From Candidatus Aenigmatarchaeota archaeon (lineage in GTDB: Archaea; Aenigmatarchaeota; Aenigmatarchaeia; CG10238-14; SCSR01): a stretch of DNA of 64,000 nt. The stretch spans positions 3,610-67,609 of the forward strand of contig JACQIA010000066.1 in the NCBI GenBank assembly GCA_016198705.1, given 5' to 3'. Each line of letters begins with the position of its first letter. Position 1 is the stretch's first letter. Under the pieces are notes generated by a model. That model ran no database searches and had not been told where the DNA came from. It saw only the letters and a program-made list of their open reading frames with translations. Shown piece by piece: positions 846 to 51,784 of the stretch. The position numbers and the translations under genes are program-made.

Positions 846-1772
846 TTACTGATTTTGAGTATTTAAAACTTTAAGCAAGTATGGAATGTCTAGATTTAGA
901 GCCTCTAAAATCTTTCTGAAATTCTTAACACTAAAGTTTCTTTTCATCAACTCAACATCTCTTATATTTTCTCTTCTAATTCCAATTTTCTTACCGAATT
1001 GATTCTGTGACAAACCTAATTCAAATCTCCTTTTTCTTAGAATTGGACCAAGATCTTTTACATTTGATAATATTTTAATCCAGTCTTCTTCTCTAGGCCA
1101 TTTGTCTTTAAAGAATTTTTGTTCATGGTAGATCCCTTTGGCTCCAGTTGTGCAGTTTTCTATTTCAGATGGACAATCTAGTCCTATGAATTTAAAGAAT
1201 CTGAAAGGTGTACCATCTTGAGTATTGGAGTATAGGCAATAACCGCATTTCTTGCCTGTAAAACCACTTTTATATTCAACAGGATAAAAGTTTAATCCTA
1301 ATTCTTTTAATTTACCAATCAAGATATCGATATTCTCTTTTGAAAAACAATTTGTAGCCAAGACTATAAATGGTACTCTATTTCCATCGTTTTTCCTTCT
1401 TACTAAACACCCATCTCCCAAATACCAAAAAAGCAACTTTATGGGAGTAATCTCCAAATTAGAAGGTAATATTTTGACTGTTTTACCACTTATTCTAGTA
1501 TACCACTCTTTTCTTAAAGAAAGAAATTTAGGATAAGGGCAGGTATTGATGTAAAAGCCCAACATGAACAAATCTGTATTATTTCGTGAAATCCAACAAT
1601 TAATGCCGCTCATGTTAAAATACTTTGCTACCCATTTTAAGAATTCTACATCTTTACCAACAATTTGAAAAGTGAAATATTTTCCGTCTTGTGACCTTAT
1701 ACTGCCATCACCAAGTAACCCACCTTCGATAATCTCATTAAGTATCATGTATACCACTTTATTTATATACAT
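846..1772 (-). CDS. free-standing LAGLIDADG homing-endonuclease-like protein with C-terminal XRE-type HTH
   Basis: Two LAGLIDADG-type motifs (IIEGGLLGDGSI and LLFWYLGDGCLV) about 100 aa apart, plus a C-terminal HTH_3-like segment (RKRRFELGLSQNQFGKKIGIRRENIRDVE). Sits between rps9 and rpoN. Confidence 0.6.
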   Translation of the reverse strand: MYINKVVYMILNEIIEGGLLGDGSIRSQDGKYFTFQIVGKDVEFLKWVAKYFNMSGINCWISRNNTDLFMLGFYINTCPYPKFLSLRKEWYTRISGKTVKILPSNLEITPIKLLFWYLGDGCLVRRKNDGNRVPFIVLATNCFSKENIDILIGKLKELGLNFYPVEYKSGFTGKKCGYCLYSNTQDGTPFRFFKFIGLDCPSEIENCTTGAKGIYHEQKFFKDKWPREEDWIKILSNVKDLGPILRKRRFELGLSQNQFGKKIGIRRENIRDVELMKRNFSVKNFRKILEALNLDIPYLLKVLNTQNQ

Positions 1773-3087: not shown

Positions 3088-3172
3088 TGCGCCAATCGGG
3101 ATTTGAACCCGAGCCACAAGCTGTTTCCTTTAATTGGGAAGCTCGTATCCTACCAGGCTAGACTATTGGCGC
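3088..3172 (-). tRNA. tRNA-Gly(CCC) with about 12-nt intron at canonical 37/38 position
   Basis: Minus-strand read: acceptor GCGCCAA/UUGGCGC plus discriminator A; D-arm GUCU-AGCCUGGUA-GGAU; anticodon stem CGAGC/GCUUG with loop UUCCCA[intron AUUAAAGGAAAC]A; T-arm UCGGG-UUCAAAU-CCCGA. An alternative parse gives Trp(CCA). Confidence 0.6.
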
Positions 3173-3253: not shown

Positions 3254-3351
3254 GCGCCGAGAGGGAGATTTGAACTCCCAAGAGCTTTCGCTCGCTGGTT
3301 CACTTCCAATAGACTCAAGACCAGTGCCATACCGGATTAGGCGATCTCGGC
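3254..3351 (-). tRNA. tRNA-Ser(UGA) with long variable arm and about 13-nt intron
   Basis: Acceptor GCCGAGA/UCUCGGC with discriminator G and encoded CC; 3-bp D-stem; anticodon stem CUGGU/ACCAG with loop CUUGAG[intron]A; long variable arm CGAGCGAAAGCUCUU; T-arm GGGAG-UUCAAAU-CUCCC. Confidence 0.55.
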
Positions 3352-3446: not shown

Positions 3447-3740
3447 TTATTGGACAACTTCCAATTTCCCATTCTTAGGAATAGTTATCTGCAATTTCTC
3501 TCTGAATTGGGTAGAATATGCGCCAATAACATTAATTGTATCCCCAACTGCGATTGATTTAATTTGGGTTTCCCACAAAGACAAAGAAATCTGCCCCGTA
3601 TCGTCTTCAAGTATAGCATCAGCCACAGAACGAGGGCCGTATTTGGTCTGCACATCCCTGCTTTCAGATATCTCCAGCACCTTTGCTGTCAATGTTATGT
3701 TGCTCATCCCAACCTTCACATCTGAAATTTTCATATACAC
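3447..3740 (-). CDS. small OB-fold nucleic-acid-binding protein (SSB/RPA-like)
   Basis: 97 aa, a single OB-fold-like beta-rich domain. Pattern resembles short archaeal SSB-like proteins. Confidence 0.4.
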   Translation of the reverse strand: MYMKISDVKVGMSNITLTAKVLEISESRDVQTKYGPRSVADAILEDDTGQISLSLWETQIKSIAVGDTINVIGAYSTQFREKLQITIPKNGKLEVVQ

Positions 3741-3767
3741 ACTAATTTATTTTAGTATTTAAGTATT

Positions 3768-4718
3768 TCACACTATTTTATAAGTTCCTTTTTTCATTAC
3801 CAATTTATCATTTCTAACGGCAACACCCTTAGTTCTTTTGTGCATCTCCGCGCTTGTCATCTTTGCTATGCCCAATGCAATCAATTCTTCTTTTAAGCTG
3901 AACATAGCAATAGTTTCACCCCTGACAATATCTTCCTGGATCCTGCAAATGCCGTTAACATAAACTGGCGCACCGTTGCAGATATTCTCTATCGCCGAAT
4001 CTTTTACAACAATCTTCTTTACATGCGGTATAGCATGCTCAACCGGAATTAACATATCCCTCAACAATCTTTCTTCTTTATTATTTCTCCAAAATTCATA
4101 CGCATCCCTAACGTCTACTAACGAATGGGAGATTTCTTCATTGAAACTGCCAACCCTAGTCCTGCGCAATTCCGACATATGCGCCCCAATTCCCATAGCC
4201 TGTCCGATGTCATGCACAAGTTTTCTTATGTAAGTCCCAGCCTGGCAGCCAACTTTAAACAAAACATCCTTACCATTAGCCTCTAAAATATCAAGAAAAT
4301 AAATTTCCCTCTCCCTCTCCCTTCTTGCCACAGCAGACTTTACCGGAGGAGTCTGTTTTATGCTTCCAAGAAATCTCTCAGCAATTGTATTTCTTAAAAC
4401 ATCCTCAGTCACATCTTTATGCAGATGCATTACTCCAACATATTCCTTATCCAGTCCAGTTAAAACTGTCATGACTTTTGTTGCATCATCCAATCCAATC
4501 GGCAGCACACCGGTAACCGCAGGATCCAATGTTCCGCTGTGCCCAGACTTTTTGACATTAAAAATATTTTTAACCCAAGCAGTACACTGATGAGAGGTTG
4601 GCCCGCTGTGTTTATCCAAAATTATCAAGCTAGAAGTTATCAATTCTTCAACAGTTCTCTCGCCAGGGTTTTTGCCCAAATTCGAATTTGTTTTTTCTTC
4701 AGATTTGTTTAGCCACAT
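3768..4718 (-). CDS. cbf5: tRNA/rRNA pseudouridine synthase Cbf5 (TruB family, H/ACA RNP catalytic subunit) with PUA domain
   Basis: TruB catalytic-Asp context KKSGHSGTLDPAVTGVLPIG and C-terminal PUA-like segment. 316 aa. Confidence 0.85.
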   Translation of the reverse strand: MWLNKSEEKTNSNLGKNPGERTVEELITSSLIILDKHSGPTSHQCTAWVKNIFNVKKSGHSGTLDPAVTGVLPIGLDDATKVMTVLTGLDKEYVGVMHLHKDVTEDVLRNTIAERFLGSIKQTPPVKSAVARREREREIYFLDILEANGKDVLFKVGCQAGTYIRKLVHDIGQAMGIGAHMSELRRTRVGSFNEEISHSLVDVRDAYEFWRNNKEERLLRDMLIPVEHAIPHVKKIVVKDSAIENICNGAPVYVNGICRIQEDIVRGETIAMFSLKEELIALGIAKMTSAEMHKRTKGVAVRNDKLVMKKGTYKIV

Positions 4719-6324: not shown

Positions 6325-6563
6325 ATCACTCTCGCTTTTTCTCTAAATAAATCTTTTGTACAATTGCCGCAAAGATATCCGCCATAAATTCTGGTTGGTC
6401 TTCTTTCAGTTTTAGACAGCTTTCCAGCTGCAGCAGCATGCATCCTTGGCATGCCGTGCAATTCCGCTTTACAATTTGCGCATCTGTTAATTCCTATCTT
6501 CCTTCTTCCGCTTCTGATTACTAATTTTCCAGAAGGCGTTCTTACCTTAATTTTTTTCATCAA
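6321..6563 (-). CDS. rpl34e: 50S ribosomal protein L34e
   Basis: 80 aa with C4 zinc motif CANCK...CGNC and RTPSGK N-terminus typical of L34e. Confidence 0.8.
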   Translation of the reverse strand: MMKKIKVRTPSGKLVIRSGRRKIGINRCANCKAELHGMPRMHAAAAGKLSKTERRPTRIYGGYLCGNCTKDLFREKARVI

Positions 6564-13703: not shown

Positions 13704-15320
13704 ATGCCCGGGTCGGATATCAGAAAAACAGCGAGACTCGCATTACGCCTTGATCCTGAAAAGGTCGGCTGGATTTACGCTTCTTTAATGAACCAGCCAC
13801 AGGTAGAATTATCCAAAGGTCCATTTCCACATCCGTTTAGTTCGCTTACCTATGTGGCTCAATATAACCAAGGTCAATTGGCATTGGTTGTCGGCTTGGG
13901 TTTAACGGACGAGTTCACAACTCGTTATGGTCCAACGGTAGGATCTCCTGAAGATTTGCAACCTCTCTTAAAGCGCTATAAGGGACACCAGTTTATTAAC
14001 AATGGGCAAGGTTTAGTATTGCATAATGATGACCAAGTTCAAGGCATGATTGTCCGAATGGAAGACCATATTGTGATTCAGCAAGGCGGGCAGGCAGGAA
14101 AGTTGCCTTTATCTCAGCAAACTCCAGTCAATGATTTACAAGTTCATTTAGCTAATTTTGGTTTATTGCCGCAGCGTTATGTGAGTGCTATATGGAATGC
14201 TTCACCCGAAACAGATCAAATGCGATTACAATTTGCACTTGATGTGCCGACCTTGCCAGAGGGCGCCCCACAAACGTATTTTTCAACATTTGAGATTATA
14301 GGTCAACAATTACGCGAGCGTCCAAGACCTGTCAGTTTGGATGATGATATTGGTGGATACAGGCATGCCAAAGAAGTGATGAAAGCCCTATTAATGGATC
14401 TAGTACAACCTGATGTCAGTCGCCAACATGGAACACAACCCTATAGCAACAAGTTTGTATTGTTTACTGGCGAGGAAGGAACTGGAAAAAGCTTGTTTCC
14501 AAAGGCATTGGATAAAATGTTACACGACAGAGTTGGCGATAGATATGAACATTTTCGTCTTCAAATGGGCACTTTATTGAGGCAATATGGTCCTGCATCA
14601 TCAGCAATTGTGAGTACTGTATTGGGTCATATAAGAGAGAATGAAAGAAAAGGCGTTCCAACATTATTACATCTTGATACATTAGAACAACTGCTACCAT
14701 CACATCTGAAATCCAGAAGAAACTTATTGGCAGGGTTACACAATGAAGTGGGTTATGATTATCCGGCTCTACAAACTCCCTCTTCTGCCGAGTTTAATTT
14801 TTCATTACAGGTCATCAATCCCATCATTGCTGAGTTTACTGCCTTTGGCCGCGAGCTAGGTGCGCAAAGCCAGTATGTTGTTGTACTTGGTGAAAGCCGT
14901 GTGTCTCGTGAGGAGTTGCCAGAAGAAGTCGCACGAACATTTCGACGTACAATCTCTCTAGATAACCCCAGCCCTTCAGATTCAGCTGATATACTGCGTG
15001 TGCAAATAAGGACTACAAGAAGTTTCGCCGAAAGAGCAAATACTGAAGAAGTGAAATACGACCCTTTTGTCTCAGACATTGAATCGCAATTGGATATAAT
15101 TGCCCAGAGTGCGGTTGGCCTGAACGGGCGTGATATACAGCAATCATTATTGAATATTACTACAAGACGCAAAGCAGCGACATTAGACGGACTTCCATAT
15201 TTACCGATTACAGCCGAGGAGTTAGGTGAGGAATTGACAAAACGTCGGGTAGAACGGGGAATAGTAGAACAAACGAAACGTCGCATAGGTTTCAGAACAA
15301 GATCAACAGCAACTCAATAA
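13704..15320 (+). CDS. divergent AAA+ ATPase-like protein (classic-clade AAA core, degenerate Walker motifs) with unknown 220-aa N-terminal domain
   Basis: DIGGYRHAKEVMKAL, then FVLFTGEEGTGKSLFPKAL (Walker A-like GxxGxGKS instead of GPPGTGKT), LLHLDTLE (Walker B with D-T instead of D-E), VVVLGESRVSREELPEEVARTFRRTISL (ATNRP/arginine-finger region). GC-richer and CGN Arg codons. Antisense to the flanking ribosomal genes. Confidence 0.55.
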   Translation: MPGSDIRKTARLALRLDPEKVGWIYASLMNQPQVELSKGPFPHPFSSLTYVAQYNQGQLALVVGLGLTDEFTTRYGPTVGSPEDLQPLLKRYKGHQFINNGQGLVLHNDDQVQGMIVRMEDHIVIQQGGQAGKLPLSQQTPVNDLQVHLANFGLLPQRYVSAIWNASPETDQMRLQFALDVPTLPEGAPQTYFSTFEIIGQQLRERPRPVSLDDDIGGYRHAKEVMKALLMDLVQPDVSRQHGTQPYSNKFVLFTGEEGTGKSLFPKALDKMLHDRVGDRYEHFRLQMGTLLRQYGPASSAIVSTVLGHIRENERKGVPTLLHLDTLEQLLPSHLKSRRNLLAGLHNEVGYDYPALQTPSSAEFNFSLQVINPIIAEFTAFGRELGAQSQYVVVLGESRVSREELPEEVARTFRRTISLDNPSPSDSADILRVQIRTTRSFAERANTEEVKYDPFVSDIESQLDIIAQSAVGLNGRDIQQSLLNITTRRKAATLDGLPYLPITAEELGEELTKRRVERGIVEQTKRRIGFRTRSTATQ

Positions 15321-15775: not shown

Positions 15776-16150
15776 CTATTTTTCAAATATTTTAAGTGCA
15801 CCTGCCACAACATAAGGATCAAGACTAATACCATTATCAGCTTCCAACCTTCTAGCTATTTCAGTAGCAAGTTCTTCTGTAGTATCAAAATTAGTTGCAA
15901 GTTCATCATAAAGTCCTCTAATAAGTGCTCTTATTTGTGTAGACTTATATCCACTTCCTCTAGAAGCTCTACGAACATCGCCTCTAAAATGGTCTTCTTC
16001 TTGATATCTTTGTCGACTGTCCGGATCTGTATAAACTCTACCACCACTTCTTATTACATTAAACCCCTTTCTCCGTAATGCATCAGCTGTATCTAGAGAT
16101 ACATCAAGGGGAACATAACCCGATGGAATAGGATTACCAAGTCTATCCAT
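15776..16150 (-). CDS. hypothetical protein (124 aa), compositionally atypical
   Basis: Intact ORF directly upstream of rps8, where rps14/rpl5 would normally be. CGN arginine codons, no recognisable motif. Confidence 0.35.
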   Translation of the reverse strand: MDRLGNPIPSGYVPLDVSLDTADALRRKGFNVIRSGGRVYTDPDSRQRYQEEDHFRGDVRRASRGSGYKSTQIRALIRGLYDELATNFDTTEELATEIARRLEADNGISLDPYVVAGALKIFEK

Positions 16151-17226: not shown

Positions 17227-17607
17227 ATGTCTGCTGGTAAATTTGGAACTGCGATAAACTGCATAGATGGCAGGACACAATTGCCTGTTATCGAGTGGTT
17301 AATGGAAAATTTTCATCTCGATTTCGTGGATATGATAACCCACCCCGGTCCAGATAAATTATTATCACAAGGAAGACCAAGCGAATTAGAAGCAATGAAA
17401 GCAAAGGTGTTAATCTCGATCAAAGCACACGGTTCTAATGTAGTAGCTGTTACAGGTCATTATGACTGTGCTGGTAATCCTGTAGCAAAGGACGAACATT
17501 TGAGTCAAATAAAGAGAGCTACTGAGTTTATCCATTCCTTTACTCTTCCAATCAAGGTAGTTGGCCTTTGGATTAACGAGAATTGGAAAATTGAGATTGT
17601 TGAGTAG
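17227..17607 (+). CDS. small beta-carbonic-anhydrase-like protein (CxDxR / HxxC motifs)
   Basis: NCIDGRTQ and GHYDCAGNP resemble the beta-CA zinc ligand motifs (CxDxR, HxxC). Only 126 aa, so assignment is tentative. Confidence 0.35.
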   Translation: MSAGKFGTAINCIDGRTQLPVIEWLMENFHLDFVDMITHPGPDKLLSQGRPSELEAMKAKVLISIKAHGSNVVAVTGHYDCAGNPVAKDEHLSQIKRATEFIHSFTLPIKVVGLWINENWKIEIVE

Positions 17608-17614
17608 AATTAAA

Positions 17615-17715
17615 TGCGCCAGGGGGGAATTTCAGCTTTAGCTTTTGAACCCCCGTTGCAAGCTTGGAAGGCTCGCGTCTATTGGCAACTATTAACCAGG
17701 CTGGACCACTGGCGC
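17615..17715 (-). tRNA. candidate tRNA-Gly(UCC) with two non-canonical introns (D-region and T-loop)
   Basis: Minus strand: acceptor GCGCCAG/CUGGCGC plus discriminator A; anticodon stem CGAGC/GCUUG with perfect loop CUUCCAA; 4-nt variable CAAC; T-stem GGGGG/CCCCC enclosing 22-nt loop UUCAAA[AGCUAAAGCUGAAAU]U; 33 nt between acceptor and anticodon stem (about 14 nt extra). Same anticodon stem as the 3088 tRNA-Gly. Confidence 0.45.
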
Positions 17716-17757
17716 TTAACATTAAATAAAGAATGCAAGACTTTAAAATAAGTATGC

Positions 17758-18456
17758 TTAGGTTGCAAGGACATTAGGAACATTTTGCAAAGAACCGTTT
17801 ACCCATTCATCTATTTCTTGGTCTGTCAGTCCTTTCAATGGCGTTTCTGACCAATAGCTGTTTATAACAACATGAGGATCAATATGGTGTCTTCTTCCAT
17901 TAGGAAAAACGTGCACAGGGACAGCACCGAAACGTCTATGAATCCTAACAGCTTCTTTTGGACTATATGTGAAAAGATTTGGATATTGTTTAAAATTCTC
18001 AATTGCGTATAAAATAGTCTCTATAGTTACTTGACCTCGAATTCTTTGGCTATCGTCATAAGATTCAAATTGGAACAACAACATAGTATCAGGTTCTTTA
18101 GCATCCCCATTGCTTCTAACTTCTTCTGCAGTAGGTGGAATGTTTTTCGGGTCACCATGTGTCTGAAGTTTATATATCTCAAGACCACCTACTATCCCAT
18201 CGGTAGAATCGGAAGTGCCATTAAGCCTTGCAATATATATTGTACCTGGCCGTTCTTGTATATGCCCAACTAATGCAGGCACATCATCATGCGCATATCC
18301 TCCCCATATTTCCCGTCTTCTTCGTACCAAATATCCCATTTCCTGTTCCGAAAGCAATGTTGGACTTACTAATGCTGTAATATTGAGTACCCTTTTCTCT
18401 TGAGGAATAAAAAGTCGCGATGATGGTGCGTATAATTGATTTGATACAGTCACCAT
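17758..18456 (-). CDS. hypothetical protein (232 aa), compositionally atypical
   Basis: Intact ORF, GC-richer, CGN codons, adjacent to a tRNA gene. No confident motif; weak GNAT-like impression only. Confidence 0.35.
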   Translation of the reverse strand: MVTVSNQLYAPSSRLFIPQEKRVLNITALVSPTLLSEQEMGYLVRRRREIWGGYAHDDVPALVGHIQERPGTIYIARLNGTSDSTDGIVGGLEIYKLQTHGDPKNIPPTAEEVRSNGDAKEPDTMLLFQFESYDDSQRIRGQVTIETILYAIENFKQYPNLFTYSPKEAVRIHRRFGAVPVHVFPNGRRHHIDPHVVINSYWSETPLKGLTDQEIDEWVNGSLQNVPNVLAT

Positions 18457-32616: not shown

Positions 32617-33900
32617 TTATTTCATTTCCAGTCTTTCTATCCCATTCATGTAAGGCTGTAAAACTTTTGGCACCAATATAGCGCCATCTTTTTGCTGAAA
32701 TTGCTCTATTATAGCAATCATAGTTCTGCTAGTAGCTAATGCTGTGTTATTCAAAGTATGGATAAATCCTGTAGGAGCCTGCCCCTGTTTTTCTCTAAAT
32801 CTTATGTTAAGCCTTCTTGCTTGGTAATCTGTGCAATTACTGTTAGAGCCAATTTCCCTGAATTTACCGTCAGCCATCCAGAATTCCGTATCATATTTTT
32901 TAGCAGCTATGCTGCCTATGTCACCGGTGCAGACATTTACAACACGATAATGCAATCCTAAAGCCTGGTACATTTCTTCTGAATTCCTCTGCAGATCTTC
33001 GTGCAATCTCCAGGATTCTTCAGGCAAACAAAAAACAAATTGTTCAATCTTGTTAAACTGGTGTGTCCTAAACAAGCCTTTGGTATACTTGCCGTGAGCG
33101 CCGATTTCTTTCCTGAAACAAGGTGATATGCCCGCCAATTTTACAGGCAAATTATTTTTATCCAGTATCTCGTCTGCAAACATTGCCCCCATGGCATGCT
33201 CGGATGTTGCTATCAAATACATCTCCTCGTTTTCAATTTTGTATGTGGCCATTTCAAAATCCACTGGATCCACCATTCCCTCTCGAGTCTTCTTGTTAAT
33301 CATGAAAGGCGGCTCTATTATAACAAACCCCTTTTTGCTTAGGAAATCTAAAGCAAACCGTTGGATAGCCAAATCCAAAAGCACCAATTCATTTTTCAAA
33401 AATACAAACCCAGCGCCAGCCACTTTCGCAGCCCTTTCCGAATCAACCAACTTTAGATTTTCCAAAATCTCCATATGGTTCTTTGGCGTAAAATAAAATT
33501 TTTGTGGCGAACCCCATTTTCTTAATTCGACATTTTCATTCTCATCTTTGCCAACAGGAACACTTTCATGCAGAAGGTTGGGAATACCCATTAAAAATGA
33601 TTTCTCTTTAATTTCCAGTTCACTCAGTATTTTCTCTTTTTTCCCTATAAGGGCATCAATTTTTTTCGCTCCAGCTAATATCTTTTTTGCCGGCTTATTC
33701 GCTTTTTTCGACTTTGCCACTTCAATGCTTAATTGGTTTCTTTTTTGCCGTAGTTTGTTTATCTCAGTCTGCGCTTTTCTCCATGTGACATCGACTTTTA
33801 GCAATTGCTCTAGAAGTTTGAGCTTATCAGGAGCATTACGTTTTTTCAAATTATCTTTTACTAAAGTTGGCTTTTCACGTATGAGTTTTATGTCAAGCAT
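32617..33900 (-). CDS. serS: seryl-tRNA synthetase
   Basis: 427 aa with N-terminal coiled-coil arm and class II core (FRKEIGAHGKYTKGLFRTHQFNKIEQF ; motif 3 GSNSNCTDYQARRL). Confidence 0.85.
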   Translation of the reverse strand: MLDIKLIREKPTLVKDNLKKRNAPDKLKLLEQLLKVDVTWRKAQTEINKLRQKRNQLSIEVAKSKKANKPAKKILAGAKKIDALIGKKEKILSELEIKEKSFLMGIPNLLHESVPVGKDENENVELRKWGSPQKFYFTPKNHMEILENLKLVDSERAAKVAGAGFVFLKNELVLLDLAIQRFALDFLSKKGFVIIEPPFMINKKTREGMVDPVDFEMATYKIENEEMYLIATSEHAMGAMFADEILDKNNLPVKLAGISPCFRKEIGAHGKYTKGLFRTHQFNKIEQFVFCLPEESWRLHEDLQRNSEEMYQALGLHYRVVNVCTGDIGSIAAKKYDTEFWMADGKFREIGSNSNCTDYQARRLNIRFREKQGQAPTGFIHTLNNTALATSRTMIAIIEQFQQKDGAILVPKVLQPYMNGIERLEMK

Positions 33901-33950
33901 AAACTAAATTTGATATTAGATTTTAAAAAGCAGTGGCAACATCAAAAATC

Positions 33951-35117
33951 TCATCTAGTTATCCTTTCCCGTTTCATGAATTCAAACAATTCCTTCGCTT
34001 CTCTATTCTTTTCGAAATACCTCCTTACAGGATCCAATATATCTGACAATCCCTTGGAAACAGCATTTTTCAAATCCGCGGGATGCAATTTACCTTCTCT
34101 GAATTCCCCTTCCAATTTTTCATAATTATGAAATTCCACATTCCCACCATAGTTGGAAGGCCTTTCAACTCCCAAGTGATCATTTTTCCTAAAAATTATG
34201 TATCTACAAATCTCTAAAATGGGATTGTTTTCTATAACTTTTGGCGGACAAAACGCATTATCTATCTTTTCTTTGATTTCTGAAGAAGAATCGTGAATTG
34301 AAATATAACTTTTCGGAATTGATTTTGCCATCTTGCTTGATATTTCTACATCAAACCCTTTACTTGCTTCAAACCCACCCATTTTTGTCGGTCCTGATAG
34401 TCCTATCAACAGATGGTGATGAACGGCAACAGGCTTCCATAGACCCAAATTCAATCCTATCTCTCTTGCCAACATATTCGCCCGTCTCTGATCTATTCCC
34501 AGCTGGCAGATATCACAGTTGAGTTTGAAGATGTCTGTAGTCTGCATCAAAGGATAAATGTAGCTAGCTGCCGGCAGCTGTTCATCTTCTGTCCTGCCCA
34601 TGATAGTTAAAGCTCTTTTGACCCTTTGCATCGATACTTTACTTCCTAATTTTAAAACTAATTCCCAATAGCCCAAATCTTTGCACAAATCCTCAGCAAA
34701 AACAAATTCAACTTTTTTAGGATCAACACCACAAGCAATCCATGCATGCTTCAGATATTCGCCAGCTTTTCTCAACTTATTTAAATCCCCTCCTAATTTC
34801 ATGTTGATTGCTGCATGCCATGTTGCCAGAAGAATCTTGTAATGTATACCTGCTTCTATTAGATCGTTCATCTTTATTGCTGATAACAAGCCTGTCCCAA
34901 GATGGGCAATACCACTAGGCTCAAATCCGTTATACGCTACAGGATGTTCTTTAGTTTCAAGCAATTGTCTCAAGTCTTCTTCTGTGATTACTTCTTCTGT
35001 AGGAGGACTCAATATTAGTTCTAGTTTTGTTTCTAAATCCATTATACCACTAATAAAGATAGAATTTTTTGATTTATCTTTTATTAACCTTTGTTCGATA
35101 GTCTTAAATAAATACAA
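33951..35117 (-). CDS. tyrS: tyrosyl-tRNA synthetase (archaeal type) with N-terminal extension
   Basis: YNGFEPSGIAHLGTGL (HIGH-like), ILLATWHAAIN, IYPLMQTTD..., KMAKS (KMSKS), C-terminal LHPADLKNAV; collinear with M. jannaschii TyrRS. True start may be the internal Met (MDLETK...). Confidence 0.75.
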   Translation of the reverse strand: MYLFKTIEQRLIKDKSKNSIFISGIMDLETKLELILSPPTEEVITEEDLRQLLETKEHPVAYNGFEPSGIAHLGTGLLSAIKMNDLIEAGIHYKILLATWHAAINMKLGGDLNKLRKAGEYLKHAWIACGVDPKKVEFVFAEDLCKDLGYWELVLKLGSKVSMQRVKRALTIMGRTEDEQLPAASYIYPLMQTTDIFKLNCDICQLGIDQRRANMLAREIGLNLGLWKPVAVHHHLLIGLSGPTKMGGFEASKGFDVEISSKMAKSIPKSYISIHDSSSEIKEKIDNAFCPPKVIENNPILEICRYIIFRKNDHLGVERPSNYGGNVEFHNYEKLEGEFREGKLHPADLKNAVSKGLSDILDPVRRYFEKNREAKELFEFMKRERITR

Positions 35118-48598: not shown

Positions 48599-49807
48599 CT
48601 AGTCCTTTTTAGAATATTTATTCACATCAATTTGTTTATTTATAAAAGAAATAATCTCAAAAAAATGTGTCAGTGCTAGTGGTGTGTTGATATCATCTTG
48701 CATTGCATCCAAGAATTTCTTCTCCATTTTTTTTAATTTTGTCAAAAAAACTGGTTTACCACTCTCCGCCCTTTTTAAATTATCTTTAATTCTTTCCAAA
48801 GTATCAGAAATTTTGTTCAGCTTCTTTTTTGCAACATCCAAATCCCTTTCATTGTAATCCAATGGTTTTCTATAATGTGTTGAAGCAATCCATAATCTAA
48901 AAACCTCTGGCGAATATTTTTCCAGCGCATCCGCTAGGCGTACGAAATTGCCAAGCGACTTAGCCATCTTTTGCTTGTTGATTGTTAATAATCCAGTGTG
49001 GACCCAGTATTTGACATAAGGTTTAATCCCAGTTGTAGCTTCTGCCTGTGCTATCTCGGCTTCGTGATGCGGAAATGCCAGTTCTATCGCACCACCATGT
49101 ATGTCATACTGTTTACCAAGATGCTTTATTGCAATCGCCGTATCCTCAATATGCCAGCCAGGATATCCCCATTCGCACCAAGGCGAATTCCATCTTAAGA
49201 TATGCTCTGGCGAAGCTTTGATCCATAGTGCAAAGTCATGCGGGTCGGTCTTATCCGTATTAAGTTCAACTCTTGCACCCGGCCTTAATTCCTTTGGAAC
49301 CTTCTTTGATAATTTACCATAATCCTTGAATTTAGAAACATCGAAATACACCGAATCATTTGCGATATACGCATATCCATTTTTCAAAATTGTTTGAACT
49401 TGGCCTATTATTTCTTTAATGTGATCTGTTGCACGTGGCAATAAATCCGGCTTCTGCAATTTAAACTTTTCCATCATTTCCAACCAATGGTTAAGATAAA
49501 AATTTGTTATTTCCAAAGGATCTTTGCTTTCTTCCTTAGCTTTTTTGATTATCTTATCTTCTCCTGTATCTTCTGTCAAATGCCCCACGTCAGTAACATT
49601 TTGTAAGTAAGCCACTTTGTAATCAAGATATCTAAGAAATCTAACTAGAGTATCATAAAATGCATAAGTCCTAGCGTGGCCTAAATGCGCGTAATCATAA
49701 ACAGTTACACCACAAACAAAAATTTTAACATACTTATCTTTCAATGGTTTAAATGTTTCCTTCTTCTTTGTCATTGTGTTAAACAATCTTAACATCAGAA
49801 ACACCAC
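48599..49807 (-). CDS. cysS: cysteinyl-tRNA synthetase, catalytic body (ends at in-frame TAG)
   Basis: VCGVTVYDYAHLGHARTY (HIGH), zinc ligands, KMAKSLGN (KMSKS). Stop TAG at 48599-48601 is followed by 9 sense codons (ITAKCSLEE) and then the C-terminal fragment. Confidence 0.8.
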   Translation of the reverse strand: MVFLMLRLFNTMTKKKETFKPLKDKYVKIFVCGVTVYDYAHLGHARTYAFYDTLVRFLRYLDYKVAYLQNVTDVGHLTEDTGEDKIIKKAKEESKDPLEITNFYLNHWLEMMEKFKLQKPDLLPRATDHIKEIIGQVQTILKNGYAYIANDSVYFDVSKFKDYGKLSKKVPKELRPGARVELNTDKTDPHDFALWIKASPEHILRWNSPWCEWGYPGWHIEDTAIAIKHLGKQYDIHGGAIELAFPHHEAEIAQAEATTGIKPYVKYWVHTGLLTINKQKMAKSLGNFVRLADALEKYSPEVFRLWIASTHYRKPLDYNERDLDVAKKKLNKISDTLERIKDNLKRAESGKPVFLTKLKKMEKKFLDAMQDDINTPLALTHFFEIISFINKQIDVNKYSKKD

Positions 49808-51709: not shown

Positions 51710-51784
51710 AGCTCAGGGTGGGATTTGAACCCACAATCAACCGCTCTGCAGGCGGTGGCCTTAACCGGATTCGGCAACCTGAGC
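51710..51784 (-). tRNA. tRNA-Cys(GCA)
   Basis: Acceptor GCUCAGG/CCUGAGC with discriminator U73 (the Cys identity element); anticodon stem ACCGC/GCGGU with loop CUGCAGA; T-arm GUGGG-UUCAAAU-CCCAC. No intron. Confidence 0.75.

Follow-up and report, generated by a model that had tools for sequence, protein, structure and literature searches.

A tRNA-Gly(UCC) gene with two short introns, at positions 21/22 and 59/60, predicted in an Aenigmatarchaeota genome

The 101 nucleotides at positions 17615..17715 of a 64,000-nt window from an Aenigmatarchaeota genome (the window being the whole stretch of DNA that we analyzed) contain tRNA-like stems on the minus strand that are interrupted by extra nucleotides in the D-region and in the T-loop, which raises the question of whether this is a tRNA gene with two introns at non-canonical positions, as the original prediction held, or a tRNA-derived remnant. 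When the window is scanned for UUCRA within a T-loop of at most 60 nt, a 5-bp T-stem and, next to it, an acceptor stem of 7 bp, both stems being GC-rich, we observe four sites, i.e., three known tRNAs and this locus, and the same scan on 30 shuffles returned a mean of 0.03 sites; the tRNA structure at 17615..17715 is far beyond chance expectation. The identical 101-nt sequence is also present in an independent Logan assembly of SRR12113383 (L035, 1388 nt). Our reading of the locus found the 7-bp acceptor stem with its discriminator A, and the GGGGG/CCCCC T-stem with its 22-nt T-loop region, just as first described. The Gly(UCC) anticodon arm is present as well, but is not the perfect arm that had been claimed, as it contains one G.U pair (G28.U42). 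This locus and the tRNA-Gly(CCC) gene at 3088-3172 have the anticodon stem CGAGC/GCUUG in common and not the acceptor stem, which differs by one pair (GCGCCAA versus GCGCCAG), and the excess in the D-region, first put at about 14 nt, is 12 nt.

Examination of the window sequence showed a complete tRNA-Gly(UCC) gene, with a 101-nt pre-tRNA body, the discriminator A at 17615 and no encoded CCA. Read on the minus strand, exon 1 (17693..17715) comprises the acceptor 5′ strand GCGCCAG, U8 and G9, the D-stem strand GUCC and the D-loop AGCCUGGUUA up to A21, and agrees with the two intronless orthologs described below (GTCC AGCCTGGTCTA AGAC in L006/L014). This exon is followed by a 12-nt intron, AUAGUUGCCAAU (17681..17692), at position 21/22, with a relaxed bulge-helix-bulge (BHB) motif of the bulge-helix-loop type. 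Exon 2 (17644..17680) carries the second D-stem strand AGAC, G26, the anticodon arm CGAGC-CUUCCAA-GCUUG (with the anticodon UCC within the loop CUUCCAA at 17666..17668), the variable loop CAAC, the T-stem 5′ strand GGGGG and the T-loop nucleotides UUCAAA (54-59), and is separated by a 15-nt intron, AGCUAAAGCUGAAAU (17629..17643), at position 59/60 in the T-loop and with a strict hBHBh′ motif, from exon 3 (17615..17628), which holds U60, the T-stem strand CCCCC, the acceptor strand CUGGCGC and A73. An A/T-rich, TATA-like box, UUUUAAA (17742..17748, minus strand), located 27-33 nt upstream of the mature 5′ end, is a putative promoter element; the upstream regions of the orthologs are all AT-rich, yet do not align with one another.

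In a BHB motif, the 4-bp central helix is formed by exon-1 nucleotides −6 to −3 paired with intron nucleotides −3 to −6, and each of the two 3-nt bulges is cut after its second nucleotide. This register was checked on the tRNA-Gly(CCC) gene of the window, where the intron AUUAAAGGAAAC follows nucleotide 37 and UUCC pairs with GGAA, and the canonical intron of an ortholog (L047) obeys the same register. Choosing the boundaries by running ARAGORN over 25,070 double-deletion variants was rejected: 3,461 distinct products passed the default threshold, and since this screen is too permissive, the boundaries were set from the orthologs and the BHB register. Each ortholog intron has exactly one product-equivalent boundary choice that is in register, with a 4/4 central helix. 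BHB motifs were looked for at both of the junctions proposed for the locus under study, and were found at both, strict at 59/60 and relaxed at 21/22.

The intron at 21/22 occupies pre-tRNA positions 24-35 (window 17692-17681), directly after A21. Two product-equivalent boundaries exist for it, and the one chosen is alone in giving a 4/4 central helix, in which UGGU (17698-17695) pairs with GCCA (17686-17683), and which is present in the minimum free energy (MFE) fold. The 3′ bulge reads AU|A and the 5′ site lies inside an 8-nt loop, which makes this intron the same bulge-helix-loop type as the canonical intron of tRNA-Gly(CCC) in the window. Its outer helix is just 1 bp (C17:G37), so that a broad-specificity endonuclease would be needed to process it. 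This intron belongs to a family present in six loci (L037, L039/L040, L046, L041 and L042) and absent in three (L044, L006 and L014), in which GCCAAU, the part that makes up the helix and the bulge, is invariant and the loop varies (UAGUU, AUAUU, AAUUU or AAAUU).

The intron at 59/60 occupies pre-tRNA positions 73-87 (window 17643-17629). Its central helix is also 4/4, with UUCA (17649-17646) paired to UGAA (17634-17631) between two bulges of 3 nt each (AA|A and AU|U), the outer helix being the 5-bp T-stem and the inner helix 2 bp (GC/GC) with a UAAA loop. Once it is removed, UUCAAAU remains, which is the T-loop of every relative, and in trials with random 15-nt inserts, 0.2% fell into this register. 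The UUCA/UGAA helix is absent from the MFE structure given by RNAfold, which shows the T-stem and the inner hairpin; since the energy of the BHB in the isolated T-arm (−10.0 kcal/mol) is within 2.3 kcal/mol of the MFE (−12.3 kcal/mol), and since the motif is recognized in its protein-bound form, we do not take this as a refutation. The 59/60 intron is present in the window and in L035 only, and all of the relatives are without it, reading GGGGTTCAAATCCCC. As its BHB is read from one sequence variant, i.e., this genome and the Logan contig of the same sample, it is predicted from the geometry of a single sequence and not from covariation.

Removal of both introns in silico gives a 74-nt product, which ARAGORN calls as tRNA-Gly(tcc) and which is in the same register as the intronless orthologs. 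This spliced tRNA retains U8, A14, G18G19, A21, U33, G53, UUC, A58, C61 and A73, and has the features of an archaeal tRNA-Gly(UCC), namely UCC in a 7-nt loop, G1:C72, C2:G71, G3:C70 and a 4-nt variable loop. No variation occurs among 11 orthologs in columns 1-3 and 72-74, or in the anticodon loop and the T-loop. Scoring the spliced orthologs against the cloverleaf showed that 95.7% of the cells are paired and that seven pairs have compensatory changes, and this covariation score was reached by none of 500 shuffles. The sole mismatch in the cloverleaf, C13.A22, is kept in 9 of the 10 distinct sequences, and since it is kept even in the intronless genes, we consider it a feature of the clade and not damage.

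Using an anticodon-arm/T-arm pattern search of a collection of species-representative genomes, we identified 34 loci; a pattern scan of metagenomes gave one locus only (L036), which is the same gene as the L005 locus. The S8 protein encoded in the window is 100% identical to an NCBI protein assigned to 'Candidatus Aenigmarchaeota archaeon', and at all loci around S8 homologs of 77-97% identity the tRNA-Gly(UCC) gene is in the same slot, within the conserved gene order L6, S8, RnfD-like gene, tRNA, variable genes, a 180-aa ORF, HIT, L3 and L4. The tRNA locus falls outside L045, L049, L050 and L051, and beyond the reach of the short P0005 and P0011 contigs. The orthologs carry many different intron patterns. 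For example, two Aenigmatarchaeota genes (L006 and L014) have no introns, and share the acceptor stem, D-arm and anticodon arm of the window gene with a CCGGG/CCCGG T-stem. The 21/22 intron is the only one in L037 (the relative whose S8 is 97% identical), L039/L040 and L046, and is joined by a 21-nt intron at 45/46 in L041 and L042. A 20-nt intron at 45/46 is the only one in L044, the L005/L036 gene (L005 being from an uncultured archaeon, with the same exons and without the T-loop intron) has an 18-nt intron at 23/24, and L047/L048 combine a 16-nt intron at 23/24 with an 11-nt canonical intron at 37/38. Orthologs of every intron pattern give the same mature sequence in register, and the intronless and single-intron orthologs place the exon junctions exactly where they were predicted, which supports the original reading of two BHB introns at non-canonical sites. 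In addition, the inner helix of the 45/46 family covaries (TCAGT/ACTGA, TCGG/CCGA and TTGG/CCAA), which suggests that the BHB structure is under selection in this clade.

We weighed these findings against three other explanations. If the T-loop insert were an unspliceable lesion in a one-intron gene, the locus would be a recently inactivated pseudogene, with GGA decoded by another copy. This explanation fits an insert that is unique to this genome and missing from L037, its relative with a 97%-identical S8, and it fits the foreign genes inserted on either side of the tRNA. However, the insert folds into a perfect 3-4-3 BHB whose register is exactly the one needed to give back UUCAAAU, as few random inserts would do, and both its first A and its −2 A match those of all 12 other introns of the clade compared (13 of 13 with the 59/60 intron included). 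Furthermore, the exons of the locus are intact at every position and identical to those of L041/L005, and the sole other Gly tRNA of the window has the anticodon CCC, which cannot read GGA by the wobble rules. On this balance we consider inactivation improbable.

We give very little credence to the alternative raised in the original prediction, i.e., a tRNA-derived element or an integration-site (att) remnant of a mobile element, since the gene is complete, orthologous and syntenic: it is full-length, with both halves, and it sits in the same slot as intact orthologs. The 3′ end of the tRNA has no second copy in the window, its 5′ end matches only the related tRNA-Gly(CCC) gene (3153-3172, with three mismatches), and no integrase was found by Pfam among the 48 window ORFs scanned; these observations stand against the variable flanks, which speak for this alternative, with the genes at 17227-17607 and 17758-18456 absent in relatives and with L005 and L044 differing at the 3′ flank. 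It is just as hard to believe that the 15-nt excess in the T-loop is an assembly or sequencing artefact. The source is metagenome-assembled and the insert comes from one sample series only, but the independent Logan assembly is identical, and a random error would not give an in-register BHB. The reading that we prefer, and which on the sequence evidence we regard as highly probable, is that the locus is a real tRNA-Gly(UCC) gene of three exons, with a relaxed intron at 21/22 and a strict one at 59/60. This tRNA-Gly(UCC) gene is presumably functional, and the predicted tRNA probably reads GGA and, through wobble, GGG.

Standard tRNA models overlook this gene, as had been anticipated, with both ARAGORN and Rfam silent at the locus. 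ARAGORN reported no tRNA at 17615..17715 with default settings, and with intron options and lowered thresholds it returned either nothing or spurious opposite-strand calls of Pro(ggg) and Leu(tag). No tRNA was found at the locus by Rfam at the gathering score (the RF00005 threshold of 29 bits was not reached), and there was no match at E ≤ 10 in 17500-17850. The Rfam scores of the orthologs fall from 59-61 bits for the intronless genes (L006 and L014), to 52-54 bits for genes with one intron, either the 12-nt 21/22 intron (L037 and L039) or the 20-nt 45/46 intron (L044), and to 44 bits for the gene with D-loop and variable-loop introns (L041); the genes with the 18-nt 23/24 intron (L005) or with the 23/24 and 37/38 introns (L047) have no match, and neither does the window gene, scored via the identical L035. 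This stepwise fall with intron load argues that the gene is missed because of its introns, and not because of poor exons. As ARAGORN and Rfam are both blind to it, annotation would wrongly call this metagenome-assembled genome devoid of tRNA-Gly(UCC), and a tRNA missed in this way skews completeness estimates, and inferences of minimal translation, for DPANN symbionts. The BHB models of tRNAscan-SE 2.0 were trained on introns of Crenarchaeota/Euryarchaeota and Thaumarchaeota, and not on those of DPANN (PMC8450103).

For the processing of this gene we propose that the 101-nt precursor would fold so that each pair of exon-intron boundaries forms a bulge-helix-bulge. In the T-arm, U54-A57 would pair with the 3′ segment UGAA of the intron, stacked on the T-stem between the two 3-nt bulges; in the D-arm, U17a-G18-G19-U20 would pair with GCCA of the intron, leaving a 3′ bulge of 3 nt and placing the 5′ site in the loop. 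The tRNA splicing endonuclease (EndA) would then cleave each bulge between its second and third nucleotides, and an RtcB-type ligase would join the exons into the 74-nt tRNA, to which CCA would be added. We infer transcription, EndA cleavage, ligation and aminoacylation of this tRNA; a Pfam scan of 48 ORFs in the window gave no match to EndA or RtcB. Because the introns pair the elbow nucleotides G18G19 and U54U55C56, the L-shape may be blocked until both introns are out, which may act as an ordered checkpoint in maturation.

The closest parallel is found in ARMAN-2 (Micrarchaeota), where a 13-nt intron at 59/60 of pre-tRNA-Cys(GCA) is cleaved in vitro by the organism's own epsilon2 EndA, and where pre-tRNA-Pro(GGG) has two T-loop introns, at 53/54 and 59/60 (Fujishima et al., 2011; PMC3239211). 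Both are DPANN with a short 59/60 intron, BHB-dependent boundaries and multi-intron genes, and in both the genes are missed by default finders. The two differ in that the 59/60 motif is strict (hBHBh′) here and relaxed (hBH) in the ARMAN-2 tRNA-Cys, in that the second intron lies in the D-loop, at 21/22, here and in the T-arm there, and in that cleavage has been shown in vitro in ARMAN-2, whereas the Aenigmatarchaeota gene is known from its sequence.

Multi-intron tRNA genes were reportedly described in the Thermoproteales by Sugahara et al. in 2008. The gene under study resembles those of Thermoproteales and Thaumarchaeota in having multiple non-canonical BHB introns, with relaxed motifs common and with rapid turnover between close relatives; those lineages also contain similar introns at different sites, for which an intron transposition model has been put forward. 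It differs from them in belonging to another phylum (DPANN), and in that its introns are very short, at 12 and 15 nt. Non-canonical BHB introns are known to occur as up to three per gene, with 45/46 and 59/60 among their sites (PMC4090602, PMC4033280, PMC8450103). Position 59/60 is a recognized insertion site, whereas 21/22 is not in the list of sites given in a review, which contains 20/21 and 22/23 (PMC4090602). Within DPANN, Kaneta et al. (2018) described tRNAs with non-canonical or multiple introns in Pacearchaeota, Woesearchaeota, Nanohaloarchaea and Mancarchaeum, and reported that tRNA disruption is increased in those DPANN whose EndA has an L3 loop, and that some disrupted genes still go undetected; their genome set did not contain Aenigmatarchaeota tRNA genes (PMC5829648). 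To confine such tRNAs to a few archaeal lineages, as in the original prediction, was too narrow, as they have been published for Thermoproteales, Thaumarchaeota, Nanoarchaeota and several DPANN (PMC4090602, PMC3239211, PMC5829648, PMC8450103). We found no description of Aenigmatarchaeota tRNA introns in the open-access literature; Aenigmatarchaeota would therefore join the lineages with multi-intron tRNAs, the kind of element being one already known.

We also observed D-arm or T-loop insertions in other tRNA-Gly(UCC) genes, from Woesearchaeota, Nanoarchaeia and a bin labelled 'Methanosarcinales' (L007 4346-4437, L019 ~6396-6426, L022 5954-6100 and L024 ~3701-3790). L007 has an intron of 18 nt in its D-arm, for which the BHB is good, the insertion in the T-loop of L019 is about 100 nt long, and for the 37-nt T-loop insertion in L022 the only strong BHB register fails to restore a 7-nt T-loop.

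What is new here, and we would call it mildly novel, is the speed of intron turnover: one orthologous gene has introns at five sites (21/22, 23/24, 37/38, 45/46 and 59/60) among relatives whose S8 proteins are 66-97% identical. Such a series of orthologs shows unusually fast turnover in a single gene and bears on how BHB introns are gained. It is possible, although we put this forward tentatively, that this Aenigmatarchaeota clade is in active, ongoing gain, loss or transposition of tRNA introns, in which case the 59/60 intron would be a very recent gain, as it is absent in L037, the relative with a 97%-identical S8. Our search for other copies of the 59/60 intron gave chance-level matches only in the window, and none in the fetched loci besides L035. 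The intron that it best resembles is the 23/24 intron of L047, with 12 of 16 aligned positions identical and an equal score in 4 of 2000 shuffles, a lead that is compatible with intron transposition. If true, the clade would be a natural system in which to time BHB-intron insertion and to work out its mechanism.

Both flanks of the tRNA are variable, with no strict link to the T-loop intron. On its 3′ side, a gene for a putative carbonic anhydrase, Pro_CA_2 (17227-17607, plus strand; PF20393, E 3e-52), reaches, with its stop codon, to within 7 nt of the tRNA 3′ end, and on its 5′ side lies a 232-aa ORF (17758-18456, minus strand) that matched nothing in Pfam. No relative has a homolog of either gene at this site, which bears out the earlier impression that this neighboring pair was acquired; the GC content near the flanking genes is unremarkable. 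In L037, L041, L042 and L046 a gap of 2 nt separates the tRNA 3′ end from the start codon of the RnfD-like gene, and other genes occupy the 3′ flank in L005 and L044. In the same region, a 538-aa ORF (13704-15320, plus strand), whose weak match to AAA-ATPase (E 0.0017) is below the cut-off of Pfam, lies on the opposite strand between L6 and S8 and overlaps the 3′ end of S8, and is also present in the Logan loci L050/L051. In all relatives, L6 follows within about 10 nt of S8, and this ORF looks like a genome-specific insertion inside the ribosomal-protein operon. A 124-aa ORF (15776-16150, minus strand), with no Pfam match, is also absent from the relatives' syntenic loci, so that a stretch of 5 kb contains four lineage-specific insertions, i.e., the 538-aa, 124-aa, Pro_CA_2 and 232-aa genes. 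Directly after the L6 gene of L045 we observed a LAGLIDADG_3-like ORF (1744-2856, a weak match), and the window itself contains a free-standing LAGLIDADG_2 homing-endonuclease-like ORF fused to an HTH_3 domain (846-1772, minus strand).

Two further tRNAs of the window contain, or most likely contain, introns. The tRNA-Gly(CCC) gene (3088-3172, minus strand; Rfam 52.5 bits), which ARAGORN mislabels as tRNA-Arg(acg), has a 12-nt bulge-helix-loop intron at 37/38. In addition to the anticodon stem, it shares with the 21/22 intron of the tRNA-Gly(UCC) gene the length and type of its intron, a 4/4 helix, an 8-nt loop, and an A both as the first intron nucleotide and at −2, and differs in that it contains one intron only, at the canonical position, and is detectable by Rfam. 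A 97-nt tRNA at 3255-3351 (minus strand), whose variable arm is long and whose anticodon loop is larger by about 13 nucleotides, has a 3/4 central helix in the BHB register and scores 45.3 bits in Rfam, with ARAGORN silent; most likely, this is a tRNA-Ser(UGA) that carries a canonical intron. tRNA-related genes are abundant in the window (3768-4718, 32617-35117, 48599-49807 and 51710-51784, all on the minus strand): a Cbf5/TruB-type pseudouridine synthase with a PUA domain adjoins the two tRNAs just described, SerRS and a Trp/Tyr-type aminoacyl-tRNA synthetase are side by side, and CysRS is about 2 kb from tRNA-Cys(GCA).
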